DNA of 19,497 bases, taken from the IMG/VR virus record IMGVR_UViG_2600254985_000001. One strand, given 5' to 3'. The notes under the pieces were generated by a model. That model did no database searches, was not told the DNA's origin, and was given only the letters and a program-made list of their open reading frames with translations. The position numbers and the translations under genes were made by a program. This stretch comes from a virus (lineage: Duplodnaviria > Heunggongvirae > Uroviricota > Caudoviricetes). Shown here in pieces: positions 794 to 19,311 of this stretch; within the stretch, counting starts at the first letter, position 1, and each line of letters begins with the position of its first letter.

Positions 794-1555
794 TTATTTT
801 TTAGCAATGATTGGTTTGTCGATTCCGTTAGCTTGCATGAAACGAATATCAATAGGCGAACCTTTCCAATCGAAGTTTTTAAGGTCTTTGCCAGTTGTTT
901 CTTTATAAGTTTTACGAACAATTGCCAATTGGTCTGGGTGTGATAGAGCGATAACTTTTTCGCCATTAAAGTAGTAAGTTGTTTTATCGCCATTTGTATA
1001 TGTAAATTTCATTAAATCGTCGTCCTCTAATTCTGTATTTGTTTGTGTATTGTTTACTGCGACTGTGCCACTAGTTTGTCCTGTAAGGCGCTTGTTTAGT
1101 TCTGTGATAAAGTATGAGCGACAACTCTCTAACGTGCCTCCGTGTACTTCTACTGAACGTCTAGGGCATGAAGTTGCTGAAAGTTCTTGATGTAGTTTAA
1201 CAGTATCACGATTAGGAGTTAACCCCCATTGTTTCATGTACTTAGCCACGTCATCTAGTACCGCTTGCTCATTTCTCAAGAACTGGTTTAAATCGCCCTC
1301 TGATTGGCATACTTCCCAGCTTGCATAGTTAGCATTACCGTACGAGTTGGCACAATGCCATGCCATATTAGAGAAATCAGAAGCTTGTAATCTTCCGTCA
1401 GAAGCAATGTAGACATGAGCAAAGCCATTTTCAGGGTTATGATTAGGTAACCAGTTGTTGTAGAAGCCAGCGTTAGCACCATTCGAACCAGCGTCATTGT
1501 GAATTACAACCCCAGTAGGGTTATAACCACGTACACCAGCATTAGTTATATTCAT
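794..1555 (-). CDS. endolysin, putative N-acetylmuramoyl-L-alanine amidase (amidase_2/PGRP-like N-terminus)
   Basis: 253-aa ORF immediately downstream of the holin, with an ATGA start/stop overlap. The N-terminal half has His/Cys-containing segments typical of zinc amidases (VVIHNDAGS, AHVYI, MAWHCANSY). It is the last gene of the late operon. Confidence 0.75.
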   Translation of the reverse strand: MNITNAGVRGYNPTGVVIHNDAGSNGANAGFYNNWLPNHNPENGFAHVYIASDGRLQASDFSNMAWHCANSYGNANYASWEVCQSEGDLNQFLRNEQAVLDDVAKYMKQWGLTPNRDTVKLHQELSATSCPRRSVEVHGGTLESCRSYFITELNKRLTGQTSGTVAVNNTQTNTELEDDDLMKFTYTNGDKTTYYFNGEKVIALSHPDQLAIVRKTYKETTGKDLKNFDWKGSPIDIRFMQANGIDKPIIAKK

Positions 1556-1905
1556 TCTTTTTTATCCTCCGTTTGTTCTTCTTCTACTTCTGGAACACTT
1601 ACACCGTTCTTTTTCATAAGTTTAACCAAACCGTCGAACATAGGACTGATTTTTGCGACCAAATAAATAAATTGCCCTACAAAGTACAATAAACCTACGT
1701 CAATCACAGTTTTGGCAATATCAGAAGTTGAGGGAGTTTGTGTAAAGAAGAAGACCGCATATAAAACCCACAGGGATAAAATAACCGTTAAGTCAATCAC
1801 AAGTCTACGTTTGAAAGGTGGGTTCATTGCTTCTCTATCTTTTACCCATGTAGCGAAAAGAATCGCTAAAATTAAGATAGTTATTAAAATCATTCTAGTT
1901 ACCAT
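1552..1905 (-). CDS. holin
   Basis: 117 aa with three predicted transmembrane segments (ILITILILAILFATWV, LVIDLTVILSLWVLYAVFFF, VIDVGLLYFVGQFIYLVA) and a highly charged C-terminus (EVEEEQTEDKKE). Sits directly upstream of and overlapping the endolysin. Confidence 0.75.
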   Translation of the reverse strand: MVTRMILITILILAILFATWVKDREAMNPPFKRRLVIDLTVILSLWVLYAVFFFTQTPSTSDIAKTVIDVGLLYFVGQFIYLVAKISPMFDGLVKLMKKNGVSVPEVEEEQTEDKKE

Positions 1906-1926
1906 TTTGTTTCGCTTTCTATTTTG

Positions 1927-2886
1927 TTATTTAATGAAGTAACTTCCGTTACCACGTGTTGCAATAGGTGTTTTACCAATATCTGGTCCCCACCAAGTAA
2001 TACTACCGTTTGTGTCTATGTCAATATGGAAAGAAGTCTCATGTCCAGCAAAATGACCAACAATACTTTGAACAACAGCTGGACGAAATTCTTTATCTAC
2101 CCATGGTCCAGACATTTTAATGCCAGCTTTTGTAGTTGATACACTACCAAAGAGTCTAACAATTACTAAATCATCGTTCTTTTTAGTGAATTGCAACTGC
2201 ATACCATTTCCAGTTTGAATTGTCAACATTTGAGTTGGAACATCGATTGTACCTCTAAGTGATATATCATTTGCATTGATTGAACCTTTAAGCGATAAAT
2301 TATTTGCGTTGATTGAACCTTTAAGTGATAAATTATTTGCATTGATTGAATCTTTAAGTGATAAATCGTTTGCGTTGATTGAACCTTTAAGCGATAAATT
2401 ATTTGCATTGATTGAATCTTTAAGTGATAAATCGTTTGCAGAAATACTATCTAAAGTACTAGCCTGAAGAATTGGCTTAATGCTTGTTACACCAGTTCCT
2501 GAAGTCGTAACAACATCAAAACAAACTTTCAAAACGCCAGAACCGTTGTTTATATCAACACCGTTACTATTATTTGATGTTTCTGCTGATAAACTTACAG
2601 GGTTTGCTGTTTGCGTTAAGTCAATATTTGCATGGATATAATTAACTGCATTACCTTTTAAGGCAACAGTTTCATTCAATAGTTCAAAATACCTCCCGCC
2701 TGCAACGATTGATGTGTTAACATATTGCACGTTAAGGGCTGTATTTAATGGACTTTTCCAATCTTTGCGCCTAATTGTTCTATAGCCCATTCCAGTCAAC
2801 ATCATGTATAGTTTTCCGTCATTATTAGAACCGACTGGAAACTCTGTACCATTTGGACTGAAAAACGTGAAGTTTTTAATTGTCAT
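1927..2886 (-). CDS. rbp: receptor-binding protein (RBP, 936/p2-type) with a repeat-expanded neck
   Basis: 319-aa ORF in the RBP position (last structural gene before the holin). Its N-terminus ([11 protein letters not shown]...) and C-terminal region are consistent with my recollection of p2-type RBP shoulder and head domains. AAAGG ribosome-binding site 7 nt upstream of the ATG at 2884..2886. Confidence 0.8.
2239..2451 (-). repeat. in-frame 33-bp tandem repeats (about 6 units) encoding 11-aa units [11 protein letters not shown] / [11 protein letters not shown] within the RBP
   Basis: Directly visible: near-identical 33-bp units repeated head-to-tail. The translated RBP reads ...[68 protein letters not shown]... 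(residues about 146..216). Confidence 0.9.
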
Positions 2887-3184
2887 TTTTAACCTTTCTT
2901 GAAATTATTTCCGCTTTATCTAAAACTGGGTTATCAGTAATTGATAGCTCTAACAATCTAAATTTTCTACCGCCATAAGGATAACCACCAATTGATACAA
3001 ATTGTCCGACTTCATACAAGAGCGTGGTCTCGATTCTAAGCGTGTTTTTACTATTATAGTACACTTTACCTTGCAATAGTTCTAAGTGGTCTTTACGAAG
3101 CTCTCTATGCCCTTTAAAGCTATCTATTCTATATTTGTCGCCATAAGTAGCTACATACTCATATAACATTCGGTTTGTCTCCAC
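2876..3184 (-). CDS. hypothetical structural-module protein between Tal and RBP (102 aa)
   Basis: ORF in the conserved position between Tal and RBP. Overlaps the Tal 3' end and the RBP 5' end, a compact arrangement typical of a phage late operon. No recognisable motif. Confidence 0.5.
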
Positions 3185-4286
3185 TTCCTACAAAAATAAG
3201 TCTATCATTGAACTCTGTTTTAACTCTATCTGCTATATATCCTGAATATAGCTTGCCCTCGTACCAAATATCTACTAAGTCATTAACATACAAAGGAAAA
3301 AGTTCATTTTGATTAAAGAATAACCTTGTGACGATTGTAGAGGGAGAAATTTCAACCTTAATAGTAGACAACTCAGGAGGGTTTCCGTGGTCATCTCTAT
3401 CATAAAACAATGTTTTGGTTGTCCTTACATCTGGCAAGTCTGTTCCGTCTCCATGATAAGTGCTATAATCAATGACATCTCCGTTATTTTTTGCTGTGTA
3501 CATTTTAGGAGGGTCTGTGTAGTCATCTGTTGCTTTATTTTTAACGAACACAACAGCAAAATTATAAGCTGAACGTTCTACTATTGTTTCCGTGTCCATT
3601 GTCACACTTTGCTTAATATCTACCCTTGTCGTGATTCTTTTTCTATTCCAGTTTCTTGAAGCAAAGTTAATGAATAACAAGTTTCTAGGGTCTGTTTCAG
3701 ATGGAGCGTGTTGAATGGTTGTAGTTGGTTGAAATTGAACCTTGGAAAATATCCTTTTTGCTACATCATGAGCTGATGAAGTTTCCGCTTTACGATTAAT
3801 CGTAGCCTTTCCAGCAAAGATACTTGAATCAAAGAAATAACCATAACTCATTAAATTATTTTTATTAGGGTCAATTAAATAATTAATTATACCAGAGTTT
3901 GTCTTTTTGGCTATTGCGTTTGGAACGTCAAGACTTTCAATCATTGCCCAAAAGTAGTTTTTTAACGTAGCTTTATTACTTTCGTCTACATCGGTCACAA
4001 GGTAAACCATATCTAAATTCAGTTTTTTCCTCTTACCTAGAGCTTCTTCAATTGGAACAACTTCAGGAAAAAGTACTTGAACAATATCGCCAACTTCTAC
4101 CGAAACGGTCAATGTAGCTGATGAAGTGTAAAGATAGCCTGTTTCCCACAGTTCGTAATCAATAACTTGACATCTTGCCTTTGGTATTGGAAGGCCTCTT
4201 TTTTCTTTTTTACCATTAGGCATTCTGAAATCAGATATATTGTAATAGTTAGGGTTAAAGTTATCATAAACGTTAGCTTCTAACAT
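3159..4286 (-). CDS. tal: tail-associated protein Tal (short form, no C-terminal lysin extension)
   Basis: 375-aa ORF directly downstream of Dit, with its start overlapping the Dit stop. The size matches my recollection of the short Tal of p2-like 936 phages. No peptidase or glycosidase motif noticed. Confidence 0.65.
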   Translation of the reverse strand: MLEANVYDNFNPNYYNISDFRMPNGKKEKRGLPIPKARCQVIDYELWETGYLYTSSATLTVSVEVGDIVQVLFPEVVPIEEALGKRKKLNLDMVYLVTDVDESNKATLKNYFWAMIESLDVPNAIAKKTNSGIINYLIDPNKNNLMSYGYFFDSSIFAGKATINRKAETSSAHDVAKRIFSKVQFQPTTTIQHAPSETDPRNLLFINFASRNWNRKRITTRVDIKQSVTMDTETIVERSAYNFAVVFVKNKATDDYTDPPKMYTAKNNGDVIDYSTYHGDGTDLPDVRTTKTLFYDRDDHGNPPELSTIKVEISPSTIVTRLFFNQNELFPLYVNDLVDIWYEGKLYSGYIADRVKTEFNDRLIFVGSGDKPNVI

Positions 4287-5182
4287 TAAATAAAGTCCGC
4301 CTTTCTCTTGATTTTAAGCTCTGCCTTACTTAAATTAACTAGCTCCATTTGACCTTTTTCAATTATACGAGTTCTGTATCGCTCAAAGTTCATTACAGGG
4401 AATAAGTTTAGTACAGTTGTACCCTTCCAGCCTTGATAAAATTCGTCATTTACATCTGTATTAATTAAAATATAATCTTGTACCTGTTCCGTCTTAAACA
4501 CAATTGCAGTATATTCGTTTCCAACATCGTCTAAAAATCTAACTCCAGCAGGTGTTTTAGGAAGTTTCGGATATAATACCCCCATAAAACTAAATATTTT
4601 TTCTTTTATTTCCCAACGGCTTAAACGGCCTATGTCACTTTCCCCATAATAAGTGTAAGAGGTTCCTTCGATATACTTATAGTCTCCTGGTGCGGTTCCT
4701 CCATAAATTTTAGACTTACCAGAAAGAACTTTACCATTTTCAATCATGTCAAAAGTTAAATTTTCGTAAGTATACCACTTTGTAACTACATCGAAAGTTA
4801 TCTTTTCGCTGAAAGTTCCGTTCTTACCGTAACCCTCTGTCTTTGTGACATCTGCTAAAGCTAAATCAGCATACACCTGAAAAATTTCTGTTTGATATTC
4901 AAGTGTAACGAATTTTTTGCTAAGAATATCGTTTACGAAGTCTTTCATTAATTGATAATTTTCTTCTAAACTTTCTCCAAACGTTTCTAGCTTAAACTCT
5001 ATTTGTGGTTGAGTAATTGAGCGTTTTCCCATTATTCCAATACCATTACTTTGCCAGATGTTATTAGTTGATTGTAACCCTAAATTAGAGGGCTGGTAAA
5101 ATCTAACTTTTCCATTTGTAACGTCCCAAACTTTGTCGTCTGTTCCGTCTAAGTTAGTATGTATTTTATACTGTCTTACCAT
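4286..5182 (-). CDS. dit: distal tail protein Dit
   Basis: 298-aa ORF immediately downstream of the tape measure gene (start overlaps the TMP stop). Canonical Dit position and size for 936-group phages, with no obvious inserted domain. Confidence 0.65.
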   Translation of the reverse strand: MVRQYKIHTNLDGTDDKVWDVTNGKVRFYQPSNLGLQSTNNIWQSNGIGIMGKRSITQPQIEFKLETFGESLEENYQLMKDFVNDILSKKFVTLEYQTEIFQVYADLALADVTKTEGYGKNGTFSEKITFDVVTKWYTYENLTFDMIENGKVLSGKSKIYGGTAPGDYKYIEGTSYTYYGESDIGRLSRWEIKEKIFSFMGVLYPKLPKTPAGVRFLDDVGNEYTAIVFKTEQVQDYILINTDVNDEFYQGWKGTTVLNLFPVMNFERYRTRIIEKGQMELVNLSKAELKIKRKADFI

Positions 5183-8172
5183 TAAGCCCTCCCTAGTTCA
5201 AATTCTCGTCTGATTGCACGCGCTAAGTTAGAAACATCTTGACCAGCACCGCCTTGCACGTTAAATGTGTTATATGTTCTATTGTCGCTTGATACACTGT
5301 TAGTGCTTAAACCGTAACCGCTAGAAGATAAATTGACATCTGTTAAGCCTACTACCATAGAACCTTTGAATAGTCCGCCAACTTTACTTGCAACCCAATC
5401 AATTGAACCTTTGATATTTTTAATTGTATCTGTTACACCTCCAAGAACGCTGTCTATTGTATCTTTGACTCCTCCAAATATTCCGCTAAAGAAGTCGCCA
5501 ATGCCCTTAAATACTCCTGTTATTGCATCCCAAGCATTTGAAGCAAATTTACCAAAAGCCTCGAATACTCCGCTAACTATATCTTTAGCACCGTCAAACG
5601 CTCCCTTAAAGAAATCAGCTACTCCGTTAAATACACCTGAAATTGCATCCCAAGCTTTTGAAGCAAAGCCACCAAGAGCGCTAAACACTCCGCTAACGAC
5701 ACTGCGAACAGAATTGAATATGCCACTAAAGAAGCCTGAAACTGCATTCCATATTGATGAAACTACTCCCCAAGCGCTAGAAGCAAAACTTCCGATTGCA
5801 CTAAATACTGTTGAAACTACTGATTTTACAGCGTTAAATATACCGCCAAAGAAGCCTGAAACTGCATTCCATACGCCAACCAGTATATCCCAAGCTGAAC
5901 CAGCAAAGCTACCTATGGCGCTAAATACTGTTGAAACTATTGAACTAACTGCGTTAAATATTACACCAAAGAAACCTGATATGCCGTTCCACGCTCCGAT
6001 AACTAATTGGTAAGCACCGCGAATAATAGCCAATATAAGTTGGAATGCTAAATTAATTACTGATCCAACTAACCCAAATATAGATTGAAAGAAACTAATT
6101 AAAGGTTGGAAAGTTGTAACAAACCAGTTATAAGCACCTGTCACTAAAGAAGCAATGGTTGTAAATACAGTTGTAACAACATTTACTATTCCGTCCCATA
6201 GCCCTGTGAAGAACCCTGTAACTCCTGCCCATGCTGTTTGAATACCAGTAACAACAGTTGTCCATAAAGTAGTAAAGAATGTTGTTATTCCGTTCCAAAT
6301 ATTTTGAACACCTTGTACAATTCCACTGAACCAATCGACTAAGCCTTGCCAAATGCCTTTAGCTCCGTCAACTGCTCCGTTCCATATATCAGCAAACCAT
6401 TGACCAATACCGCTAAAGAATGAAACTATTCCGTCCCATGCACTCTTTAAGAAGTCTACGAAACTACCCCAAACCTTTTTACCTGTTTCGGTTTGAGTGA
6501 AGAAGTAAACTAAACCAGCAACAATGGCTGCGATTGCTATGCCAAGAGCCACGAATGGATTCATAGCCATTACAGCATTGAAAGCTCCTTGTATAATTGT
6601 ACCAGCTTCAACAACCTTATTATATATCTCGACAGCCTTAATGATTCCATCAATAACTTTCAAAGCAACGAATACACTAGCCAAAGCAGCTAAAGCTACT
6701 TTTAAAGTATCTATTGCGCTTTTACTTTCACTAATTTTTTGCAGAAAATCAGCTATTTTTTTCGTGACTTCTGAAAATTTACCAGCAAATACAGCTATGC
6801 TTTTTGCTACGTTATCTATACTTGTTGCGTTTTTTGTTGTTTCTGTATTTATTCCAATAAATGAATTTATGACATTCCCTATAATAGAAACTATGGAACC
6901 AAATGCACTTTTTATGCTATCCCAAGCCTCTAAAAATGCTAAAGTGGCTGCATTTTCTTGCAGTTTTTGAAACAAGTCTTGGAAATACTTAACTACATTT
7001 GTTACAGCTTTACCAGCACTTTCGCCCCAGTCAGACATCTGGTCTATTAAGCCACTAATGATAGGTGTTAAAGCGTTCAAAGTAGGCACTAAAGCAATTG
7101 ACATTGTTTCGTTGAAGCTGTCCCACGCGTCCCCAATAGTTTTGATTCCACCGCCCGAACCTTTAGCCATTTTTTCCATAGCCTTGTTGAGCATATCCAT
7201 CGAAACAGCGCCTTTTGAAACAGCGTCATTAAAAGAACCGTATTGCTGTAATGAGGGGTTCATTTTCATAACAGTGTCTTTTAAAGAAGAACCAAGAGCT
7301 GTGTTGTTATCGGTTAATTGTCCAATATTTTCAGCCGTAACTTTACCAGCTGCCGACATTTGACCGTAAGACTGAACTACACCTTTAAGGTTTTCGCCAG
7401 TACCACCAAATGCTTGGTTAGCTTTTACTAATGCTTCTGTTTTACTGACCGCTTTTTTAGCGCTATCGCCTAAACCAATGAACGTTGTTGAAAGTTTTAA
7501 AGTATCTTCGGTATTTGCATTTGTATCTTTAGCAAGATTCTGCATAGATTTGCTTACATAGTCAAAGTCTTTTCCATTGCCTTTGAACTTCATTGTATTT
7601 TGCAATGAAATCATGGCTTTTTGAGTATCCATTGCGTTAGATACCCAGTCTTTTAAGCCGTTACCGACAGCACTAACAGCACTTGCACCGATTTGTCTGA
7701 ATGCACCAACAGCAATCTCTCTAAGACCGCTAAAGCGTGACTTCATGCCCTCAATTCCGCTATTAACGCCTTTAGTATCCATTTTAGCGTCAATGTTCCA
7801 AGAGCCTGAACTAATAGCACCCTCGACTTGCTTAATTTCGCCCTCTAGCCTATTAGCTTGTGTTTCTACTGTACCTAAATCTCTAGTAAGTTGTAGCCAT
7901 TTCTTTTGACCTGCTGACGTCCCTTTGTCAACCGTAGAAAGTTCTTCTTTTAATTTTGTTGCTTTGTCACGTGATAAGCCCAACTGCGTTTGTAAGTTCT
8001 TCTGCAATTGCGCCATTTTCCCGGTATTTGTGGGGTCAAGTTTTAGAGCTTCACGTAAGTTTTTAGCTTCTCCTCTAAGCCCTGACATTGCGGTATTAAC
8101 GCCTTTAAGTGAGTTCTCGAATTTCGTTGTATTACCGTATATCTCGACCTCAAATGTTGCATTACTTGCCAT
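5182..8172 (-). CDS. tmp: tail tape measure protein (TMP)
   Basis: 996-aa ORF. N-terminal coiled-coil-like region, central hydrophobic segments, and a C-terminal series of about 40-aa Gly/Phe/Trp-rich tandem repeats (GIFNAV.SVVSTVFSAIGSFA.SAW...). Its position between the chaperone genes and Dit is diagnostic. Confidence 0.9.
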   Translation of the reverse strand: MASNATFEVEIYGNTTKFENSLKGVNTAMSGLRGEAKNLREALKLDPTNTGKMAQLQKNLQTQLGLSRDKATKLKEELSTVDKGTSAGQKKWLQLTRDLGTVETQANRLEGEIKQVEGAISSGSWNIDAKMDTKGVNSGIEGMKSRFSGLREIAVGAFRQIGASAVSAVGNGLKDWVSNAMDTQKAMISLQNTMKFKGNGKDFDYVSKSMQNLAKDTNANTEDTLKLSTTFIGLGDSAKKAVSKTEALVKANQAFGGTGENLKGVVQSYGQMSAAGKVTAENIGQLTDNNTALGSSLKDTVMKMNPSLQQYGSFNDAVSKGAVSMDMLNKAMEKMAKGSGGGIKTIGDAWDSFNETMSIALVPTLNALTPIISGLIDQMSDWGESAGKAVTNVVKYFQDLFQKLQENAATLAFLEAWDSIKSAFGSIVSIIGNVINSFIGINTETTKNATSIDNVAKSIAVFAGKFSEVTKKIADFLQKISESKSAIDTLKVALAALASVFVALKVIDGIIKAVEIYNKVVEAGTIIQGAFNAVMAMNPFVALGIAIAAIVAGLVYFFTQTETGKKVWGSFVDFLKSAWDGIVSFFSGIGQWFADIWNGAVDGAKGIWQGLVDWFSGIVQGVQNIWNGITTFFTTLWTTVVTGIQTAWAGVTGFFTGLWDGIVNVVTTVFTTIASLVTGAYNWFVTTFQPLISFFQSIFGLVGSVINLAFQLILAIIRGAYQLVIGAWNGISGFFGVIFNAVSSIVSTVFSAIGSFAGSAWDILVGVWNAVSGFFGGIFNAVKSVVSTVFSAIGSFASSAWGVVSSIWNAVSGFFSGIFNSVRSVVSGVFSALGGFASKAWDAISGVFNGVADFFKGAFDGAKDIVSGVFEAFGKFASNAWDAITGVFKGIGDFFSGIFGGVKDTIDSVLGGVTDTIKNIKGSIDWVASKVGGLFKGSMVVGLTDVNLSSSGYGLSTNSVSSDNRTYNTFNVQGGAGQDVSNLARAIRREFELGRA

Positions 8173-8684
8173 TACATACCCTTTCTTTTACGCCTTTTCT
8201 CTTTTTCTTTTTCCTCTTTCTTTTTCTCTGCAATAAGTTCGATTATTTTATAAACAAGTTCTAGTTCCATTTCCATGAACTGTGTTATATCAATTTCATT
8301 ATTGCCCAAAACAGTCAAAAGTTCTAAAGTTTTATTTTCCCTTACAGTATCTTTCTTTTTCTTAATCAATGAACTAGAAGAAAAGAAGACTGTATCGTCT
8401 TCCGTTTCCTCTTTTTCTTTAATAAAAACAGTTTTACAGAAGATATTGATTAACTCGTTAGTTGTAGGAAGCTCTGTTTTATCATCTAAGGCGTTTTGCA
8501 TTCCTCCGTTACAATCTACCCAAAGTATCAATAACTTGTCTGTAAAGCTCTCCATTTGCTCTGTAAAGTCATCAGGAATATATCCAGCGACAAAAGAATT
8601 TTGTAGGTCTGCAAAGTCTTTTAAATCTGTAATAAAGTCTGAACCAGTTAGTTCTAAGTATCTAATTGCATGTTTTAAAATCAT
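8172..8684 (-). CDS. tail assembly chaperone-like protein (170 aa, acidic with a basic C-terminal tail)
   Basis: ORF immediately upstream of the TMP, with its stop overlapping the TMP start. GAAAGGA ribosome-binding site upstream of its ATG. Position corresponds to the gpG/gpT chaperone slot. Confidence 0.5.
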   Translation of the reverse strand: MILKHAIRYLELTGSDFITDLKDFADLQNSFVAGYIPDDFTEQMESFTDKLLILWVDCNGGMQNALDDKTELPTTNELINIFCKTVFIKEKEETEDDTVFFSSSSLIKKKKDTVRENKTLELLTVLGNNEIDITQFMEMELELVYKIIELIAEKKKEEKEKEKRRKRKGM

Positions 8685-8703
8685 TTACAGTCCTTTCAGC
8701 TCA

Positions 8704-8979
8704 TTAAATTTCTTTCTGCCATAATTCGACAAGTTCTTTAAGCCCTTTACCGTCAGTATCGAACTCGAAGCTAGAACGGAAGTCAGAGAAGTCACTTTTA
8801 GCTTTTACAATGTTATCTTGAAAAAGAGCCAAGTATAGACCATATTGAACGAACTCCATTAGGTCAGTAATTTCTCCGTCTTCTTTTTTAAGTTCTGTAT
8901 CCATTGCCTTTTGTTGTTGGAAAAGGTCTTTACCTGTAATCATTTTAAATTTACGTGCTGTACTCAATTGTTTTGCCAT
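8704..8979 (-). CDS. tail assembly chaperone-like or small tail protein (91 aa)
   Basis: ORF between the major tail protein gene and the downstream chaperone ORF. Assigned on synteny only. Confidence 0.45.
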   Translation of the reverse strand: MAKQLSTARKFKMITGKDLFQQQKAMDTELKKEDGEITDLMEFVQYGLYLALFQDNIVKAKSDFSDFRSSFEFDTDGKGLKELVELWQKEI

Positions 8980-9016
8980 TTTATTTTATATTCCTTTACT
9001 TAATCTATTTTTAGTC

Positions 9017-9922
9017 TTATGAATGGTCAGTTACTGAAACTCCTGCGGTAACATCTTTATAACCCTCAGCGGAGAACTTTACGTTATAGGCACCTGGAGC
9101 AAGTTGTCCGTTTGTTGCTACTTTTCCATTTGCGTCATTAATCACTGATGTTACTTTTACAGTTCCACCATTAGAATCTTTCAAAGTGGCAGGCACTACG
9201 ATTCTTCCGTCATTATGACCCTTTGTAGCAGTAGTCACATTAGGAATAACAGGAGCTACGAGTGTAATTCCACCAGCTAGAACTGTATCAGGTTGCATAA
9301 TGAATAAACCACTTTCCATTTTCTTGACGAAATCTTTTGCTTGTTCTCCCCAAATTTCGTACTCAATAGCAGGGACTTTTTTACCGCCATTCAAATAAAT
9401 ATCTGACTCAGTCGCTTGTACTGCCAAAGTCCATTGGATAGGGTCTACACCGTCAACTGAATCTGTTTCTGATTCTTTTGTTGCTTCTGCTGTTGGTCTC
9501 AAATTTGGATAAACGACTACGCGATAACCGTCAACAAATTCCCCTGTAACTTTATCACGCTTACGCCCTTTAATAAGGTATTGAACACATTTCGTTTTCC
9601 AATTACCAGTAGGAGACCAACCCAAGCCATTTTCTGTTCTTTGTTGACCTAAAATGTCTTCTTTAAGCGATTGGTCTGTTTGAATGAATACCATTTCGCC
9701 TTGAAGTAAGGTAGCACCTTTTTTCACTCCATGGTCTGGCACGTCATCAGCTGGATAGCTGTTAGTCTCCGCTTGGTCTTCCATTGCGCCAACTGATACT
9801 AAACCAGTTACAATTTTATGGTTAGTAAACTCTGGTTTTCCGTTACTTCCCTTGGCCATATCAGCTACGATTAGAGCTTCATTACCAAAGAAAATCTCAC
9901 GTGAGTTATAATCTAATTTCAT
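9017..9922 (-). CDS. mtp: major tail protein (MTP) with C-terminal Ig-like domain
   Basis: 301-aa ORF upstream of the chaperone/TMP genes. The C-terminal approximately 90 residues (…VATNGQLAPGAYNVKFSAEGYKDVTAGVSVTDHS) resemble a bacterial Ig-like decoration domain. AAAGGA ribosome-binding site upstream. Confidence 0.75.
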   Translation of the reverse strand: MKLDYNSREIFFGNEALIVADMAKGSNGKPEFTNHKIVTGLVSVGAMEDQAETNSYPADDVPDHGVKKGATLLQGEMVFIQTDQSLKEDILGQQRTENGLGWSPTGNWKTKCVQYLIKGRKRDKVTGEFVDGYRVVVYPNLRPTAEATKESETDSVDGVDPIQWTLAVQATESDIYLNGGKKVPAIEYEIWGEQAKDFVKKMESGLFIMQPDTVLAGGITLVAPVIPNVTTATKGHNDGRIVVPATLKDSNGGTVKVTSVINDANGKVATNGQLAPGAYNVKFSAEGYKDVTAGVSVTDHS

Positions 9923-10029
9923 TTTTTATTTTCCTTTTTATTTTTTTATGCAGTACGTTTCCAATAATATATTGTCGTTGAACCAATTACTGCTGAACCG
10001 ATATTTTCCCATGCAATCCTAAATATATA

Positions 10030-12399
10030 TTAATCAATATCAATATTCCACATGCAAACAGGATATATTAAATCTTGTAACTGTGACATAATTTGAGCCA
10101 TTGAGTATTTGTTAGGGTGTATCGATCCATAAGTAACGCCATCTGAATTTAAAGCTGACCATGTTTTTATAGACATATCATTATGTGCGTAAGTTCTCGC
10201 TGTAAAATCAGCAAACGCACACTCGTATTTACGACATAATTCTTGTATTATAGGTCTAACATTTTGAAACCACTCTACATAGGTTCTCCCAGTATTATAA
10301 ACTGTTCCAACTGTTGGCAAAGTGATGATAATAGCCAAATCTTTTACGGTTTTATTATAAGCTGGTCTACCATTAACACTTGTATTTCCTCTTATTCTTT
10401 TCAATCCTTCTTCCATATTTGTTTTAAATAAGTTTAATCTTTGTTCTAGTGTTAACCCAGCGAACTTCGTATGGTTTTTATCAGCGTCATTCATTCCCCA
10501 TCCAATTATTAAAAGGTCTGGGTTATGTTCCATCGATGTTTGTAAAAAACCATTAGGGTATTTTTGTAAATAGTAAGGCAAAGCATAAGTTGGGTTTCCT
10601 ACCCATTCATTCGTATTTCTACCACCAAAACCATTGTTTAGTATTGATAATTTTTTTAAATCATAATTCCCTGCCTTCATTATTTTTTTAAGTGCATAAT
10701 CTTTCATGCCAAAAAAAGTATCTTGAACCGATGATAGTGGAGCGTAACCAGCAGTTATACTATCTCCGTCTAATGCTATTGATATATTATTTACACCGTC
10801 ATAAATTTTCTCATACCAATGCTCTAAATATTCATGTCCCCAAATAGGTGTAACTGGATATTTGTAATAATCAAACGCAGTAGTAGTTGTTGTAACAGTG
10901 TCATTACTTACTGACGGGGTATAATTTACCATTTTTTGAAAACTATCTAAATTACTCGGTACGTTGTTAGTGGATGAAGTGTAATTTAAAACTTGCATGT
11001 CTGCTAATATCATGTCAATATCAGATTGTGTAAGAGGTTTTAATCTAACATACCCTTGAATAGCATATATTCCATTTGCGTTTATATTTTTTTCGTTTGT
11101 AACAGTAACACTCTCACATTTCAAAGTATTGCTATTAAATTTAACTAATTCTAATCTTAAATATTTTGAGTTAGTATATTTTAAAATAGAACCCTTATTT
11201 AATGTCATTTTTTGAGTTGAAAAGTATGTCTTGTTAATATCTTTTGAAGCACTACCAACACTATATTTTCCATATGTTACAGTCAAGTCAATATCAACTA
11301 ACATTCTATCTTTGAGAAATTTTAATTCATCTTCAATAATGTCTATTTTGTCTGTAGTTGAAATATATGATGTAAAAATAAAATTTGATTTTGTCGTTGC
11401 AACATCTTCTCCCATTTTTCCAAAACCAGTTTTGGCAGTTTGAAAAGCAATTTTGCCAATATGCTTTATACTCATTCCATTTTTTACTTCGCCATAGCGT
11501 AAAAAAGCACCATTTTTATCATATAAAAAATATTTATAAAGTGTATAATTAGTTGGATTTTTAATATTTAATTCAACAGTACCGCTAATATCAAACTTTA
11601 CAGTTCTATTCATAGACTCATTAATAACTGTTTCGCCATTATTATCATTATATTTACCAACTTCCCAAGCAACATTTAAAGTTGTTGGTGTTAAACTGTT
11701 CGCTTGTGCTTCGGTAGCCTTTGCCATTGCATTTTTGGCTTCACTTTCAGCTTGTTTTGCTGTTTCTTGAGCAGTTGTTACATTTTGATTTGTGATTAAT
11801 AAATCTGATTGTTCAGCTTTTGTTGAAATTGCAATCCCTTGCCTGCTGACATCAGCTTGTAAGTTGTTCAAGTCTGTTTGATTGGCTTTAAGCTCAATAT
11901 TGCTCTTGTTTGATTCAGTTTGAGCATGTAAGTCATTCAACTCACTACGCATTACTTGTGGCATATTTTCCAATAATAATTTTGTAAAATCATCAATCTT
12001 ATTATTTACTTCTTGAGCTAAATCTGTAACCGTAGAATTATCTGATATAAACGTAAGGTTCTTGCTGACGATAACCTGCTCTTTATCTTCATTGAGAAGT
12101 ATTAAGTTCGCTTCAATAACTCCAGTTTCTGTCATTTCGGTAGGAATTACTAAAATAAACTCTCCCTTAGTTAAGTTTTCAGGAGGAATCATAACAAAAC
12201 CTGAATTACTGCTATTAGTATATTGATATGTAAGTTTTAATGAATGGCCAGTCAAATCAATTTCGCCTCCATTATCAAGTATTTTAATTGACAATGTTCT
12301 AGCGTTGACGTCGCCTTGCATTATTTGAATTGGTTGTGGGAAGCCTTTATTGACCGTATCCCATACAATCGCTCTATTTTTAAAATTATCTAAACTCAT
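10030..12399 (-). CDS. large accessory virion protein (789 aa): N-terminal domain, coiled-coil stalk, central beta-rich region, C-terminal SGNH/GDSL hydrolase domain; candidate neck passage structure (collar-whisker) protein
   Basis: Lies between the head-tail joining genes and mtp. Residues about 140..240 are heptad-like and Ala/Gln/Glu-rich. The C-terminal region has SGNH blocks: ALDGDSITAGY (Ser547 codon at 10759..10761), NNGFGG, GWGMNDA, and DGVTYGSIHP. Confidence 0.7.
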   Translation of the reverse strand: MSLDNFKNRAIVWDTVNKGFPQPIQIMQGDVNARTLSIKILDNGGEIDLTGHSLKLTYQYTNSSNSGFVMIPPENLTKGEFILVIPTEMTETGVIEANLILLNEDKEQVIVSKNLTFISDNSTVTDLAQEVNNKIDDFTKLLLENMPQVMRSELNDLHAQTESNKSNIELKANQTDLNNLQADVSRQGIAISTKAEQSDLLITNQNVTTAQETAKQAESEAKNAMAKATEAQANSLTPTTLNVAWEVGKYNDNNGETVINESMNRTVKFDISGTVELNIKNPTNYTLYKYFLYDKNGAFLRYGEVKNGMSIKHIGKIAFQTAKTGFGKMGEDVATTKSNFIFTSYISTTDKIDIIEDELKFLKDRMLVDIDLTVTYGKYSVGSASKDINKTYFSTQKMTLNKGSILKYTNSKYLRLELVKFNSNTLKCESVTVTNEKNINANGIYAIQGYVRLKPLTQSDIDMILADMQVLNYTSSTNNVPSNLDSFQKMVNYTPSVSNDTVTTTTTAFDYYKYPVTPIWGHEYLEHWYEKIYDGVNNISIALDGDSITAGYAPLSSVQDTFFGMKDYALKKIMKAGNYDLKKLSILNNGFGGRNTNEWVGNPTYALPYYLQKYPNGFLQTSMEHNPDLLIIGWGMNDADKNHTKFAGLTLEQRLNLFKTNMEEGLKRIRGNTSVNGRPAYNKTVKDLAIIITLPTVGTVYNTGRTYVEWFQNVRPIIQELCRKYECAFADFTARTYAHNDMSIKTWSALNSDGVTYGSIHPNKYSMAQIMSQLQDLIYPVCMWNIDID

Positions 12400-12455
12400 T
12401 AAAAAATACCATTATTGTTAATTTCAATCAAATGTAATTAAACCACTTTCTACTT

Positions 12456-12842
12456 TTATAATTTCATTGAATTAGCATAAATAGCGCCTTTTTTCAATGT
12501 TGTTTTAACGTCTTGCATACCTTTTTTATTTCTTAAAAAGTACATACCATGATAACCGCTAGTATAATTAGCTCTAGTACCTGCGTCAATAACTATTTTA
12601 TCGCCTTTTTTAACTTGTTTTAAGTTACTTGATAATTGACCAGTATTTTGGTATCTAGCATAAGTATAGGTGTGACCATGACTTCTAATTAATCTAGTTC
12701 TTCGGCTTGCACTATTCGCTTTAGCTTTAAATTCTGCTTCAAACCAGTCGCCCATGCGTTCTGTTACTTTAGTTTGCATTTCTTTAGCTATGCTTGCTGT
12801 ATTAAGTAAATTCATTGCCATGCTTGACCACCTGCACCACAA
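12456..12842 (-). CDS. head-tail joining or tail completion protein (128 aa)
   Basis: Fourth small ORF after the capsid gene. Assigned by synteny with HK97-like and 936-type head-tail connector gene sets. Overlaps its upstream neighbour. Confidence 0.5.
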   Translation of the reverse strand: MWCRWSSMAMNLLNTASIAKEMQTKVTERMGDWFEAEFKAKANSASRRTRLIRSHGHTYTYARYQNTGQLSSNLKQVKKGDKIVIDAGTRANYTSGYHGMYFLRNKKGMQDVKTTLKKGAIYANSMKL

Positions 12843-13150
12843 GGCAAATAAACAGTACCAGTATAATTGTACAAATGGCTATTCTCTGACCAGTTCGTCA
12901 TATTCCAACCGTTTTGTAAAACATTTCCGACTAGTTCTACAAGTTCATCGTCAACATCTTTAACAGATAAAACAACTTGATAATAGTAACCCATGACAAA
13001 GCTCGTATTATCCATTTTAATGACCTTTGAGTCACTAAGTGATAAATATACCGTCTTGTCTTCTATCGTGTCCTTAACACCTAAAATAACGTCATTTAGA
13101 GGCATTGTAAGCAAATTGTTGTACCAATCTATATAAGAATCAAATTCCAT
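12812..13150 (-). CDS. head-tail joining protein (112 aa)
   Basis: Small ORF in the head-tail connector cluster, overlapping both neighbours. Assigned by synteny. Confidence 0.5.
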   Translation of the reverse strand: MEFDSYIDWYNNLLTMPLNDVILGVKDTIEDKTVYLSLSDSKVIKMDNTSFVMGYYYQVVLSVKDVDDELVELVGNVLQNGWNMTNWSENSHLYNYTGTVYLPCGAGGQAWQ

Positions 13151-13454
13151 TGCTTACTACCCCCTCTAAAATCATCTTGTTATTCTTAGGGTTTCTTTCC
13201 CATGTTGTACGCTTGAAAGTTTCGCCTTTTTCGTCCAAGAAATAGTTGAAAATCAAGTCTTCCATTTCTCCGATTCCGTTAAGCTCGTATCTTACGTTTT
13301 TACCTAGCCCAATCATAGAAAACTCATCAAGCCTTGTCTGACTAATTCTCTGTTTAACTGCTGGTAAAACGATAGGCTTTATAACATTAGCTTCTGCACC
13401 GTTCTTCTTCTTAACAGTCGTTTCTACCTGTAATGTAACTTGTGAGAATATCAT
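13140..13454 (-). CDS. head-tail adaptor or head closure protein (104 aa)
   Basis: Small ORF in the head-tail connector cluster, with its start overlapping the upstream stop. Assigned by synteny. Confidence 0.5.
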   Translation of the reverse strand: MIFSQVTLQVETTVKKKNGAEANVIKPIVLPAVKQRISQTRLDEFSMIGLGKNVRYELNGIGEMEDLIFNYFLDEKGETFKRTTWERNPKNNKMILEGVVSNGI

Positions 13455-13717
13455 TAAATACCTCCATAATACATTAACTCTTGCAAAGAAGCCAAACGTT
13501 TCATTTCAGCATTTCGCCATTGTTCTGCTGGTTCATCAACAATATTAAGCCGACAATAACAAGAAATAAAGTCTTTAACTAATACGCTTGTTTCGTCAGC
13601 TTTAATACCATTTTTTTCTAGCAATTTAATAGCTATTGAACGGAATAAGATAAGTTTACTATCATAAGCTGTTACTAAAATCGGAATACCACAATAGACC
13701 TTAATATAATCTATCAT
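13454..13717 (-). CDS. head-tail connector protein (87 aa)
   Basis: First small ORF downstream of the major capsid gene. Assigned by synteny. Confidence 0.5.
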   Translation of the reverse strand: MIDYIKVYCGIPILVTAYDSKLILFRSIAIKLLEKNGIKADETSVLVKDFISCYCRLNIVDEPAEQWRNAEMKRLASLQELMYYGGI

Positions 13718-13737
13718 TTACTTCCTCCATTTTATTC

Positions 13738-14940
13738 TTATGCTACTGTAATTACTGCACCAGCGTTATAAGTTTCAACATGACCGCTTGTTAGTGTTTC
13801 TACCAAAATCATGTTGCTGTTAGTTTTCCATTCAAAGGCATCAACTTTTGTAAGGTCTTGCATGTCAATGTGATACTTTTGGTCTACCAATACAGTAGGT
13901 TTGAGTGCTTTTGAACCTGTATAGACAATAATTTCATCTACTCCAACTTCAGAGGCAATTTCAGCGTCATCATTTTTAATACGAACGTGAGCATTTGCAG
14001 TTGCTTGACGTAACTCATCTAACAAGGCTTTACGGTCTTCTGCTTTAACAATCAAATAACGACGTCCAGCAGTAGGGCGAACAAAGTCAACCGCTTCTTC
14101 AATAGCGTCAGCAAATGGAGTTTTGCCAGCTGATTTGGCTTTTGTAGTAATCTTTTTGATTTTTTTGACGTCTGCTTCTTTTTCAATTGATTTAAAACCG
14201 TTTGTTCCGTCACCCTCAATAAGCGCAAGGTCAACAATTTTATTAACAATAGCTTGTGTAAGTTCCGCTACAATCAAGTTGTAAAGTTCAGAATATGACA
14301 TTTGAAGTCGTTTAACACGTTCAGCAAGTGATTGCAATTTATAAACCATTACAGGTTCAAGAGTATCAATAGTGAGAGCTGCAGCCTGTTCTACTTTTTG
14401 TTGTCCGTCTTTGTGGAGATTTGCTTCATTAGCTGAATCAAATGAGCGTGATACGAGCAAAGCGCCGACATTTGTAACACGGAATACTTTGAACACTGGG
14501 TTAGTATTTAACAAAACTGTGTTGATTGAATCAACCAATTTACGTGGAAGCTCAAAAGTTTTATCTGTGATAGTTACACCATTTTCAGCAAGTTTTGCGC
14601 TCCAAGCGTTTTTAATTTCTGATTTTCCAGAGTTCTTTTTCAATACATCAAAAAATTCTGTTACAGCGTTTTGTGATTCAATAAAGTTTGTCATTTTATC
14701 TTTTCCTTTTGGTTTTTCTTCCTGTGCGTTAAGTTCATTCTCAATTTTGATAATTTCAATTGAATTTTCTGAAAGTGTTTTTTCCAATTCTTGTACTTTT
14801 GGCAAGTCTTCAATTGCATTTTTTACTTCAAAGCCACTAATTTGAGATTTTAAAGATACGTTATTTTCTTTAAGTTCTGCCAAGCGGTTCTGTTTTTCGA
14901 TTAAATCAGGTTTATTCATATTTCTTTTTAATATCCTCAA
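13738..14940 (-). CDS. major capsid protein (HK97-like, with N-terminal scaffolding/delta domain)
   Basis: 400-aa ORF following the protease gene. The N-terminal approximately 100 residues are coiled-coil-like (…RLAELKENNVSLKSQISGFEVKNAIEDLPKVQELEKTLSEN…), as in delta-domain capsid proteins. Canonical portal-protease-capsid order. Confidence 0.8.
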   Translation of the reverse strand: MRILKRNMNKPDLIEKQNRLAELKENNVSLKSQISGFEVKNAIEDLPKVQELEKTLSENSIEIIKIENELNAQEEKPKGKDKMTNFIESQNAVTEFFDVLKKNSGKSEIKNAWSAKLAENGVTITDKTFELPRKLVDSINTVLLNTNPVFKVFRVTNVGALLVSRSFDSANEANLHKDGQQKVEQAAALTIDTLEPVMVYKLQSLAERVKRLQMSYSELYNLIVAELTQAIVNKIVDLALIEGDGTNGFKSIEKEADVKKIKKITTKAKSAGKTPFADAIEEAVDFVRPTAGRRYLIVKAEDRKALLDELRQATANAHVRIKNDDAEIASEVGVDEIIVYTGSKALKPTVLVDQKYHIDMQDLTKVDAFEWKTNSNMILVETLTSGHVETYNAGAVITVA

Positions 14941-15448
14941 TTTCTTTCAAAGCGTTACGGCTTTCAATAATTTTGTTACGTTCTTCTGTGAGTTCTTCGC
15001 CCAATGCATTTTGAATAAACTTTGCGTTAGGGTCAGCTGGTACTGAAACAAGAGAAATCTCTTTAAACTGTGCTTTATTTACAACTAGAGCATCATTTTC
15101 ATTAAACTCATAATCTGTAATGTAATAGGCAATTGATAGTGAATCAAACGCTCCATTTTCCACAGCTTTGTTAATGTTTGGTGCATTGTCGTAAAGCGTA
15201 AAGTCAGTCAGGTATTTATTAGAAGCTAAGTCATAATAAACTTTCGCGTCCCCAATTACTTCACTAGATCCAGCTCCGTGTTCATATAGCAATGGATATC
15301 GTTCTCTAGCAAACTCAATGCAGTTAGGGGTCAAGATAATACCGTTACGATTCTCTACGCCAACTTCTGAACCAATGCCTTGGAACGACTTAGAACCGTC
15401 CTCGTTTTCAGTTACTTTAATTTCAGCACTATTGGTTATTAGTTTCAT
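14912..15448 (-). CDS. prohead maturation protease (HK97 family) or scaffold-like protein
   Basis: 178-aa ORF between the portal and capsid genes. Overlaps both neighbours. Assignment is mainly by synteny. Confidence 0.55.
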   Translation of the reverse strand: MKLITNSAEIKVTENEDGSKSFQGIGSEVGVENRNGIILTPNCIEFARERYPLLYEHGAGSSEVIGDAKVYYDLASNKYLTDFTLYDNAPNINKAVENGAFDSLSIAYYITDYEFNENDALVVNKAQFKEISLVSVPADPNAKFIQNALGEELTEERNKIIESRNALKEIEDIKKKYE

Positions 15449-16565
15449 CTGTGCTTGTTACGTCCTTTCTATTGCCTTGTAAATCACTTAGGTTTTTAAC
15501 AGCAACTGCGTTAAGGTTTGTGACATAAATATCTCCGCCCTCGATTGGTTGCTCGCCCATTTTAACAAGAAGTTGATTCTGTGTAAAAATAGGAGCGTTG
15601 ATATTTTCGTGATACAAGTCAATTAATTCTTTCAAAGTTGCAAACTTGAATAGCTGGTTATCTACGATTATGCGTTCATAATATAAATTATCCTTAACTA
15701 CTCGTCTGCGGTTTGTTGAAATCAGTTTATAAGTCAGTTCCTTTTCAAGTTGAATCAGTAAAGGAATGATAGTAGAGTTATAAAAATAAATTTGTTGTTC
15801 TTGCGTAGCAGTACCAAGCAAAATATTTTCATTCATAAAGTAGCCTGTCAAAAGTTCCGATTTAATAAGGTCAATTTCATCTTTGTTTAAAACGGAATAA
15901 TCTTTTTTAAGTTCTACAATTTCCGTCTTGTTATCAACTGGTGTCAAACCATTGTAACTCGAACCCTCTTGCATGTTCTTTATTGTTGTTAAGGCTTTTT
16001 CTCGATACTCTTGCGTATTATCAATATCAAGAAAGGCATTAATTTTCAACAAGCCACGCAATTTACCTTGTTCCAGCTTAGTTTGAATACTAGCTAGAGC
16101 ATTATCTAAAATACTTGTATCCTCATTGATATAAAAAGGACTGATAAGCCTTACTAATTCTTCAGGTTTATATTCTTTTTTATCGTTAGCAAATAGTAGG
16201 TCTAATAGATCTCCTGTTTCACTATCAAATATAGGGTACAGGTCAACATAGCGCGTGCATAGCAACTTTTTAATTACTTTCTGCCAAAACTCCATGCTAT
16301 TGTGTTCGCCCTTAGAACTCCAGTTTAGAACCTCGTCTAAGTCAGAACCTGCCATACTAATCAAAGTATCAGAACCAACATCAGACTTTTTATATTTAAC
16401 ATGATTAAATTCTACTTTTGTTATTTCATTAGCGATTTTATTATGAATGTTAGTCACAAAGGCACTTGTATATTCTACCGCTTCGTTTTGCCACGCTGTA
16501 ACTCTTTGAGTATCATTGTTTAGCTTTCCACGTGAAAATGATACCACTTTTCCGAATAAGTTCAA
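15429..16565 (-). CDS. portal protein
   Basis: 378-aa ORF between the terminase/HNH genes and the protease gene. Assigned by synteny and size. Confidence 0.7.
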   Translation of the reverse strand: MNLFGKVVSFSRGKLNNDTQRVTAWQNEAVEYTSAFVTNIHNKIANEITKVEFNHVKYKKSDVGSDTLISMAGSDLDEVLNWSSKGEHNSMEFWQKVIKKLLCTRYVDLYPIFDSETGDLLDLLFANDKKEYKPEELVRLISPFYINEDTSILDNALASIQTKLEQGKLRGLLKINAFLDIDNTQEYREKALTTIKNMQEGSSYNGLTPVDNKTEIVELKKDYSVLNKDEIDLIKSELLTGYFMNENILLGTATQEQQIYFYNSTIIPLLIQLEKELTYKLISTNRRRVVKDNLYYERIIVDNQLFKFATLKELIDLYHENINAPIFTQNQLLVKMGEQPIEGGDIYVTNLNAVAVKNLSDLQGNRKDVTSTDETNNQ

Positions 16566-16577
16566 TTTTTCCCCTTT

Positions 16578-16862
16578 CTACCATAAACTCACACCTTTCC
16601 CACGTTTATACTCGCTTGTCTTCTTGTTATGGCAAGACTTACAAAGGAGTTGTAGGTTATCAGGGTTCAGCGCTATTTTCCAATCATCAAGATTTTCCCA
16701 AGTTAGTTCTATAATATGGTCTACTTCGTATTTTTTAGCACCGAATGCGCCACATCTTACGCAAGTCATCTTATCACGTTGTCTTACATAATCACGGACA
16801 GCCAACCATTCTTTTTTATTATACCAACCACTTTCTCGAACTGTGTCAACATTATACTTCAT
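16578..16862 (-). CDS. HNH homing-type endonuclease (terminase-associated)
   Basis: 94-aa ORF with paired Cys and an H-N-H core ([48 protein letters not shown]). Overlaps the terL 3' end by about 11 nt. Confidence 0.85.
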
Positions 16863-18474
16863 CTGACACCGCCATTTCTAAAGCCATTGTCAAAGCAACA
16901 GTAGGGTCAATTTTATCTTTTTCAAGTTTTTTAGTATACATATAGTCCCCATTTTGTCCGATTTTAACAGCAGTATTATTTAAAGCCCACTGCATGACTT
17001 TTTGGTTATGGATAAGTTTATTTTCCGCTAACTTAGATTTTAATAGCTTGATATAGTCACTCATTGAGAAACCTTGTCGAATTGCTCTTTGGTTGTCTCC
17101 ATCTTTGTCAAAGAAATAACGCTCAATCAGCCCTTTTAAAATTTCATAGCGAGCTGGGTCGTATCCGACTTTTCTAAGTCTGCACCCTGTTTTGGTTCTA
17201 AAGTCATTAATATGCGGTATTAAGTCGTTCACATTGATGTATTCCGTATCAAGTAAGATTAGTTCGCCTCTGTCAACGAATTCAGTCCATAACTCTTGTT
17301 GTTCTGTGTCCAGTTGCTCATATTGAGACCGTACAGAGAAAGTTAGCGTATGGCTGTAAGTTTTACCCTCTAACTCACAAACGAACGATACAGCGGTTAA
17401 ATCGCCAATTAAGGATAGGTCAATTCCGACATAAGTTCTATTTTTATTAAATACAGATAAATTAAAGTCTGTTAGTTTAGTGTCTTGCGGAGTGAAGTAG
17501 TAAGCTGTATCCTGCATAGGTAAGCCCATATTAAACGCTAAGAACTTATTCTGTAACGCTGGGTCTCCTTGCGCAAGCTCGTACTCCTCAATAACTCCTG
17601 ACCACTTAGGAACATTGCCAATAAGTGGTAAAGCCATAGTCCAATTCTTTTTATCTTTGACCTGCTCATGATTTTCTAGCATGTAAAGCAAGCCGAATGA
17701 CCTATCATTGTAAAATTCTTCTTCTGATTTGAATCGTTCAACAAGTTTATCATAAAGTCCGTCGCGTTTAAGTCCGCCAGAAGTGATGTAAATACTTTGC
17801 CAGTTATCTTGTTTTTGACGTGAACCTTTATTAACTGACTCTGTTATATCCTCGCCATAGGTATGGACTTCATCAAATATATTAAGGGAACTGTTACCAC
17901 CTTGCGCTCGTAAAGTATCATTTGTTTGCTTTTTAAAAGTGGTTTTGAAAGACGTAAATTCTAGCCCTTGTTTTGTACTCTTGAAAATCTTGTTTTCATT
18001 GTACACTCTTAATGTATCACTTGCTTCCGTTTGATTCCTAACTTGGTCAAATACGTGTCTAGCCTGTGTATTATCGTATGCAATAACTAGACTTTCTCCG
18101 CCATATTGTCCGCCTAAAATCATCCAGTTAAGCACGCGCGTAGCCATTAAACTAGACTTACCTGATCCACGGCCTAAATTAAGAAAAATCTCATTAATTA
18201 GGTTGACTTGAACACCTTTTTCATCAACCATATCATAGCCTAACATTAACTCATACCACCATTTTTGTGTTGGAAGTAGCTCAATTTTCATCAGGTTACC
18301 AGTAGTCAGGTAGAAGTTGTCTTCTATCCATTCAATAGCTTGCGTAACACGGTCATAGCGATAAATATATTTGTTATGAATACGTATTTGCTTCTGAATA
18401 GTCTTGCGAATGTACTTATTAATAATAATGCCGTTTTCTTTGTTGTATTCCAACATTTTATTTAAATAATACAT
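16852..18474 (-). CDS. terL: terminase large subunit
   Basis: 540-aa ORF with a Walker A-like motif (LGRGSGKSS, around residue 100) and acidic residues in the C-terminal nuclease region. Lies downstream of terS. Confidence 0.9.
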
Positions 18475-18485
18475 TCATTCCCTTT

Positions 18486-18716
18486 CTATTCAAATACTGA
18501 TTGCAAATATTCATCTGAATATGGACACCAACCTTCGTCATCAGTCATTTCTTTTTTAAGTTGTTTCCAGTTTGAAAACTGACCAATAATAGAATCGTTG
18601 TCTCCACACGTCTCACAATAATCTTCAACTTCTTCTAATTCTTTTTCTGAAGTATTTTCTGACATCAGATAAAGTCCTCCGCCCAAATGGTCTTCAACTA
18701 CCCAATATTTTTTCAT
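18486..18716 (-). CDS. small acidic Cys-containing hypothetical protein between terS and terL (76 aa)
   Basis: ORF with an ATGA overlap with the terS stop. Contains CETCGD and WCPY, a possible small zinc-ribbon-like fold. No functional assignment. Confidence 0.5.
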   Translation of the reverse strand: MKKYWVVEDHLGGGLYLMSENTSEKELEEVEDYCETCGDNDSIIGQFSNWKQLKKEMTDDEGWCPYSDEYLQSVFE

Positions 18717-19237: not shown

Positions 19238-19311
19238 ATTATCCTTTCTTTTAAATGTGGTTATATCGTTTAAAGCCTATATTTTCGTTCCTGTGAGCGT
19301 TAAGTTAATTA

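Follow-up and report, generated by a model that had tools for sequence, protein, structure and literature searches.

The 19,497-nucleotide (nt) stretch of IMG/VR virus record IMGVR_UViG_2600254985_000001 analyzed here (hereafter, the window) almost certainly encodes, at positions 3159-5182, the Dit and Tal proteins of a p2-type (Skunavirus/936) lactococcal siphophage baseplate. Both proteins are of the short type, with no carbohydrate-binding module (CBM) inserted in Dit and no lysin extension on Tal. Exactly two open reading frames (ORFs) lie in this region, 5182..4286 and 4286..3159, both on the minus strand. They encode a Dit of 298 amino acids (aa) and a Tal of 375 aa, exactly as placed by an earlier sequence-only reading, which left the strand unstated. 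That reading had also proposed that the two proteins are undecorated and that, in this phage, contacts with the host surface beyond those of the receptor-binding protein (RBP) would have to come from other components. Its identification of the pair was confirmed by full-length, gap-free matches to ORF15 (Dit) and ORF16 (Tal) of phage p2. The question of their fold is answered as well, because crystal structures exist for these collinear orthologs at 93-96% identity.

Across 100% of its length, the window shares 98.4% nucleotide identity with Lactococcus phage JG7, which originates from a cheese plant in Canada. It is matched by 426 phage records, nearly all of them Lactococcus or Skunavirus. 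On genome-wide nucleotide similarity and synteny, the window is assigned to the Lactococcus Skunavirus (936/p2 group).

When Dit was used as a query against the PDB, ORF15 of p2 was recovered with residues 1-298 of both proteins aligned (2WZP, 2X53, 4V5I, 6ZIG, 6ZIH, and 6ZJJ; E=1.9e-190), and a global alignment of the two gave 92.6% identity without gaps. An identical Dit (100%) is encoded by the Canadian cheese-plant phages BM1 and GL4. The likeness to p2 ORF15 extends to the length of 298 aa, both Pfam domains, the arm-hand extension, the Ca2+ ligands, and the position of the gene, directly downstream of that for the tape measure protein (TMP) and upstream of that for Tal. The N-terminal part has the Hcp/gpV-like ring domain, while positions 1-165 of the 165-position Pfam profile of the C-terminal, galectin-like domain are matched in a single stretch, with no inserted module. 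The Ca2+ ligands listed for p2 Dit are Asn10, Asp12, Asn241, Asp246, and the carbonyl of L11 (PMC3893620). All four side-chain ligands are conserved in the Dit of the window and Leu11 is also present; N10, D12, and the L11 carbonyl are in the ring domain, and N241 and D246 are in the galectin-like domain. In every respect that can be judged from its sequence, this protein is a classical p2-type Dit.

The two proteins differ by 22 substitutions, of which 19 are in the galectin-like domain (Fisher p=0.003) and three in residues 1-132, that is, in the ring domain. The arm-hand extension is the region of Dit most diverged from p2, with eight of its 44 residues changed versus 14 of 254 elsewhere (Fisher p=0.008). 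In p2, this extension anchors the shoulders of the RBP trimers and is specific to p2-like baseplates (PMC3893620, PMC7472080). It would presumably have the same function in the window Dit, judging from the p2 structures, and the cluster of substitutions may reflect co-variation with the RBP. The term "undecorated" is thus accurate for Dit as far as CBMs are concerned; it does not do justice to the arm-hand extension and the regulatory Ca2+ site, both of which are kept.

The absence of a CBM was established by comparison with evolved Dits, in which a CBM, usually BppA-like, occupies a loop of the galectin-like domain and the protein reaches about 460 aa or more. The published CBM insertions measure 168-319 aa (PMC10688798), and evolved Dits bind host cells and aid adsorption to strains that produce exopolysaccharide (EPS+) (PMC10688798, PMC7291167). 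The evolved Dits of phages Phi91127, D6887, and D2929 share the N-terminal ring and the galectin core with the window Dit but carry a BppA-like CBM at the tip of the arm, which the window Dit lacks. The 491-aa Dit of Phi91127 is 89% identical to it over the shared columns, and the 193 extra residues align as gaps around T163-D167 of the window protein, between G162 and Y168. This insertion site, at the tip of the arm-hand extension, is only five residues long; it reads TAPGD in the window and TAPGN in p2, with no scar. The search for hidden domains drew on NCBIfam, which has no model for Dit or Tal, and on Pfam at E ≤ 10. No domain other than Dit_N and Dit_C, and no CBM family, was found in Dit by the Pfam scan at this threshold. 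Based on alignment and domain content, the window Dit is not an evolved Dit.

Similar results were obtained for Tal. The PDB search returned ORF16 of p2 with residues 1-375 of both proteins aligned (2WZP, 2X53, and 4V5I; E=4.3e-244), and the global alignment gave 96.0% identity with no gaps. Like p2 ORF16, the window Tal has 375 aa, four gp27-like domains, and no extension; it differs by 15 substitutions, five of which fall at residues 126-135 in domain 2. Its closest relative is the Tal of JG7 (99.7%). The Pfam domains are PF16792 (residues 1-109), PF20954 (112-215), and PF20955 (217-372), with PF20953 inserted in the last at 234-317. Together, these Caud_bapl16 domains 1-4 cover residues 1-372, leaving three residues at the C-terminus, and no further domain, whether hydrolase or CBM, was detected in Tal with Pfam at E ≤ 10. 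By this domain content, Tal is the gp27-like structural module (four domains, about 375-400 residues) and is not an extended Tal with a C-terminal hydrolase or CBM, as known from TP901-1, Tuc2009, 80alpha, and streptococcal phages. A CBM or hydrolase domain in either protein, the finding that would speak against short, unextended proteins, was looked for and not found, and on this point the sequence-only reading stands. The Tals of TP901-1 and Tuc2009 (P335 group) and of staphylococcal phage 80alpha share the N-terminal gp27-like module of about 400 residues that plugs the Dit ring (PMC3893620, PMC7291167). They differ by a long C-terminal extension with a peptidoglycan-cleaving domain (PMC7291167), which the window Tal does not have.

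To what extent are a short Dit and a short Tal particular to this phage? Two matching, evenly spaced samples of 60 records each were drawn, the first from the 380 phage records with a Dit match and the second from the 379 with a Tal match. A single Dit match of 894 nt (298 codons) was found in 44 of the 60 records, save for one divergent match of 924 nt (4R15L, 53% identity), while in the other 16 the match was split and extended over 1380-1476 nt or more, indicating an evolved Dit. Evolved Dits hence make up about 27%, and classical Dits about 73%, of the sampled Skunavirus records, which is consistent with the published figure of "up to 30%" evolved Dits in the 936 group (PMC7291167). The Tal match was exactly 1125 nt (375 codons) in 57 of 60 records; it was 1140 nt in fd13 and of similar length in two distant relatives (37-48% identity). 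In these samples, the short Tal is constant throughout the genus and most Dits are of the classical type; neither is something special to the phage of the window. The short proteins are indeed present in this phage, as had been proposed, but they represent the classical Skunavirus state that it has in common with p2. Truncation or pseudogene decay was also considered as an explanation for the short Dit and Tal and was rejected, as both lengths are the norm of the genus.

Three other interpretations of the short proteins were weighed against a structural, adhesion-neutral Dit and a structural Tal. The C-terminal domain of Dit has a galectin fold (PMC3893620, PMC7472080), and the excess of substitutions in it could mean host-driven selection, as might be expected if the galectin-like domain of classical Dits were a working, though weak, carbohydrate binder. 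We consider such a role highly improbable. In the p2 structures, this domain serves protein-protein contacts, and the cited literature credits the CBM insertions of evolved Dits, not classical Dits, with host binding. In addition, classical-Dit skunaviruses show poor adsorption to EPS+ hosts, which is remedied by supplying an evolved Dit (PMC10688798), and the substitutions cluster in the RBP-contacting arm-hand, a pattern more in keeping with co-evolution with the RBP than with a sugar. It is scarcely credible, furthermore, that Tal hydrolyzes peptidoglycan through a cryptic activity and is a tail-associated lysin in the true sense, even though nearly all related GenBank records, and phrog_1432, bear the label "tail associated lysin". 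This label is inherited from the family name and is nominal; it is not evidence of enzymatic activity and should not be taken as such when it is attached to this gene. Structural domains alone account for practically the whole of the window Tal, the crystal structure of p2 ORF16 shows a gp27-like fold without a catalytic module (PMC3893620), and the lysin activity of the TP901-1, Tuc2009, and 80alpha Tals resides in the very C-terminal extensions (PMC7291167) that are absent here.

A related consideration is whether peptidoglycan hydrolysis is provided by another tail protein. A Pfam scan of TMP, Dit, Tal, the ORF17 homolog, RBP, the neck passage structure (NPS) protein, the major tail protein (MTP), the tail terminator, three connector-region proteins, and two tail chaperones, which left out the portal, protease, and major capsid ORFs, detected no peptidoglycan hydrolase domain. 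This agrees with the statement that no peptidoglycan-digesting enzyme is known in the structural cassette of p2 (PMC3893620), which also argues against a lysin function of Tal. The last interpretation holds that the short Dit and Tal result from a recent reduction, their decorations having been lost, and are not the ancestral state. Evolved Dits occur in the same genus with their insertions at a single hot spot, both gain and loss by recombination are possible, and Dit swapping by recombination has been demonstrated (PMC10688798). We nevertheless find a recent loss very unlikely, given that the classical Dit is in the majority, that the length of Tal is constant even in the most distant matching phages, and that the loop at the insertion site is as short as that of p2 and unscarred.

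The structural reading of Dit and Tal allows a baseplate mechanism to be proposed, in which the features observed in the window (identity, domain content, lack of insertions and extensions, Ca2+ ligands, gene order, and coupling) are combined with the stoichiometry, conformational change, and channel opening of the p2 structures. By analogy with p2, whose Dit rings are known from crystallography and electron microscopy (PMC7472080), Dit would form hexameric rings at the end of the tail, two of them back to back as in the p2 virion model, with the N-terminal domains making the DNA channel. Each peripheral galectin-like domain would use its arm-hand to grip, or insert into, one RBP trimer at its shoulder, for a total of six trimers and 18 RBPs; the RBP shoulder that the Dit hand is expected to grip is conserved relative to p2. 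A Tal trimer would dock below the Dit ring and close the channel as a dome. Upon activation, Ca2+ bound between the two Dit domains would stabilize a conformation in which the RBPs have swung by about 200 degrees toward the cell. The Tal dome would then open like an iris, perhaps as a separate later step, and TMP and DNA would be released through a channel of about 32 Å. Work from 2020 suggests that the opening of Tal is uncoupled from, and follows, the reorientation of the RBPs (PMC7472080). Since neither Dit nor Tal has a CBM or a peptidoglycan hydrolase domain, specific adhesion would rest with the RBP heads, and auxiliary contact would be left to the decoration domain of the MTP or to the NPS protein.

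No observation contradicts such a reading, but it has its limits. The mechanism as a whole is transferred from p2. The substitutions that separate the window Dit from p2 ORF15 are concentrated in the arm-hand and the galectin-like domain and may affect RBP docking. The RBP neck is much longer than that of p2, and the resting "heads-up" geometry between the arm of Dit-2 and the RBP head should not be assumed to be identical. Finally, Ca2+ alone did not trigger activation in p2 virions (PMC7472080), and the trigger is thus unsettled even in p2.

The view that auxiliary host engagement must come from components other than Dit and Tal is a sound inference, one that earlier studies of the 936 phages have put forward and, in part, tested (PMC6669499, PMC10688798). 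In this group, evolved Dits, NPS proteins, and the TpeX extension of the MTP are all known to contain CBMs, and binding to host cells was demonstrated for domains of TpeX and NPS (PMC6669499). The TpeX CBM occurs in many 936 phages. The MTP of the window is the short form; no TpeX frameshift extension was found in the window, where only about 38 nt (8979-9017) separate the MTP stop codon from the next gene, with no alternative ORF. The remaining candidates are therefore the NPS protein, the C-terminal decoration domain of the MTP (PF20608, residues 220-301), and the RBP itself.

The NPS protein has a collar domain (BppU_N, residues 7-147) and a GDSL/SGNH domain at residues 545-769 (~10093-10767, minus strand). 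The SGNH motifs are intact, with GDS at 545-547, GxND at 635, and His at 761, except that Gly replaces Asp three residues before this His. Esterases of family CE2 use a Ser-His dyad, and a Gly at this position would fit such a dyad. A tblastn search with the C-terminal 389 aa recovered 53 Lactococcus phages, and all 36 of those among the matches listed belong to the Canadian cheese-plant series; the region was not detected by tblastn in the other ~330 Skunavirus genomes. It is also 23-25% identical to structural or tailspike proteins of a few Pectobacterium, Pseudomonas, and Stenotrophomonas phages. A sequence search of the PDB with the NPS protein gave no match. We regard the NPS protein as one candidate for additional contacts with the host surface.

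The RBP resembles that of p2 in its shoulder and head and is 55 aa longer, with five more 11-aa repeats in its neck. The repeat unit of its neck is SI(S/N)AN(D/N)(L/I)SL(K/R)(D/G), and the p2 RBP has a single unit, SISVNDMTVSG. The number of copies is one in p2, two in 96603, three in RH13, four in BM21 and JG7, and six in RM9 and in the window. On these counts, the repeats are a stepwise copy-number polymorphism of the trimeric neck, between the shoulder bound by Dit and the receptor-binding head. Long necks have been reported in some Skunavirus RBPs (PMC12282274). It is in the RBP neck repeats and the SGNH-containing NPS protein, and not in Dit or Tal, that the phage of the window differs from the model phage p2. 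A more speculative idea, which we hold to be rather unlikely, is that the classical Dit, the lineage-restricted SGNH NPS protein, and the lengthened RBP neck form a co-adapted substitute for the CBMs of evolved Dits and TpeX in the cheese-plant lineage. If so, the apparently intact Ser-His SGNH esterase would strip acyl groups from cell-wall polysaccharide, EPS, or teichoic acid, and the longer neck would alter either how far the RBP heads reach or how firmly the Dit-2 arm locks the RBP head in the resting state.

A p2-type Dit and Tal without CBM or lysin is already known and is the normal, well-documented state of this group. The baseplate of p2 is among the best-characterized siphophage adhesion devices, and the dichotomy between classical and evolved Dits has been published together with functional tests. 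The present assignment is of use mainly for annotation and for prediction. The 6073-like EPS of dairy starters partly blocks skunaviruses that have a classical Dit, and grafting an evolved Dit rescues their adsorption (PMC10688798); because of this precedent, the phage of the window might likewise be blocked by 6073-like EPS. Comparison with TP901-1 Tal mutants (PMC3893620) further suggests that a phage with a lysin-less Tal would depend on growing cells, whose walls are less cross-linked.

The features discussed above are collected in Table 1. All long ORFs of the window from ~800 to 19240 are on the minus strand and make up a siphophage morphogenesis and lysis module. The order TMP-Dit-Tal-ORF17-RBP-holin-lysin is identical in the window, p2, and JG7. 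The stop codon of TMP and the start codon of Dit share the letters TAATG, as do the stop of Dit and the start of Tal, and the stop codon of Tal overlaps the ATG of ORF17. The overlapping junctions indicate that TMP, Dit, Tal, ORF17, and RBP form a translationally coupled block.

Table 1 Positions of the baseplate genes, their domains, and neighboring genes in the window
Feature	Position	Strand	Remarks
Dit gene	4286..5182	-	298 aa, classical type, baseplate hub; match to p2 ORF15
Dit_N ring domain, residues 2-132	4787..5179	-	PF16774, E=3.2e-38
Dit_C galectin-like domain, residues 135-298	4289..4780	-	PF21766, E=1.5e-82
Dit arm-hand extension, residues 145-188	4619..4750	-	Full length, uninterrupted, collinear with p2
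Evolved-Dit CBM insertion site, T163-A-P-G-D167	4682..4696	-	Holds 5 residues
Tal gene	3159..4286	-	375 aa, gp27-like structural module alone, predicted trimeric plug; match to p2 ORF16
TMP	5182..8172	-	996 aa; Pfam TMP_3; JG7 annotation; 84.7% identity to p2 ORF14
ORF17 homolog	2876..3169	-	97 aa; 96.9% identity to p2 ORF17; JG7 annotates 97 aa
RBP	1927..2886	-	319 aa; p2-type shoulder, neck, head
RBP neck repeats, residues 147-212	2251..2448	-	Six tandem 11-aa (33-nt) units; TRF period 33, 6.1 copies
MTP	9017..9922	-	301 aa; PF06488 + PF20608; 93.4% identity to p2 MTP
NPS protein	10030..12399	-	789 aa; BppU_N + C-terminal SGNH/GDSL
Endolysin	1555..794	-	Sole Amidase_2 found

Among the ten proteins of the tail, the baseplate, and the lysis functions that were aligned with their p2 counterparts, TMP is the least conserved, and it differs in length by 3 aa. 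Its gene contains, at 5717-5979, a tandem repeat of 120 nt (40 aa) in 2.2 copies with 77% matches. The ORF17 homolog was originally listed from a GTG at 3184 (102 aa; 2876-3184), of which phrog_1434 matches residues 6-102; a start at the ATG at 3169 agrees with this PHROG match, with the JG7 annotation, and with the alignment to p2. No Pfam domain was found in this protein, and ORF17 of p2 is absent from both the baseplate complex and the virions (PMC3893620).

At the other end of the window, a 10-bp unit, GAGATTTAGC, is repeated in tandem 5.7 times (95% matches) at 19395-19451, upstream of the small terminase gene. The position equivalent to the terminus of the linear JG7 record is ~50-100 nt away, and the repeat may belong to the cos region or be bound by the terminase. 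The minus strand also carries a gene for an HNH endonuclease of 94 aa (16578-16862), flanked by the large terminase and portal genes, and an HNH gene in this location is a known feature of skunaviruses.

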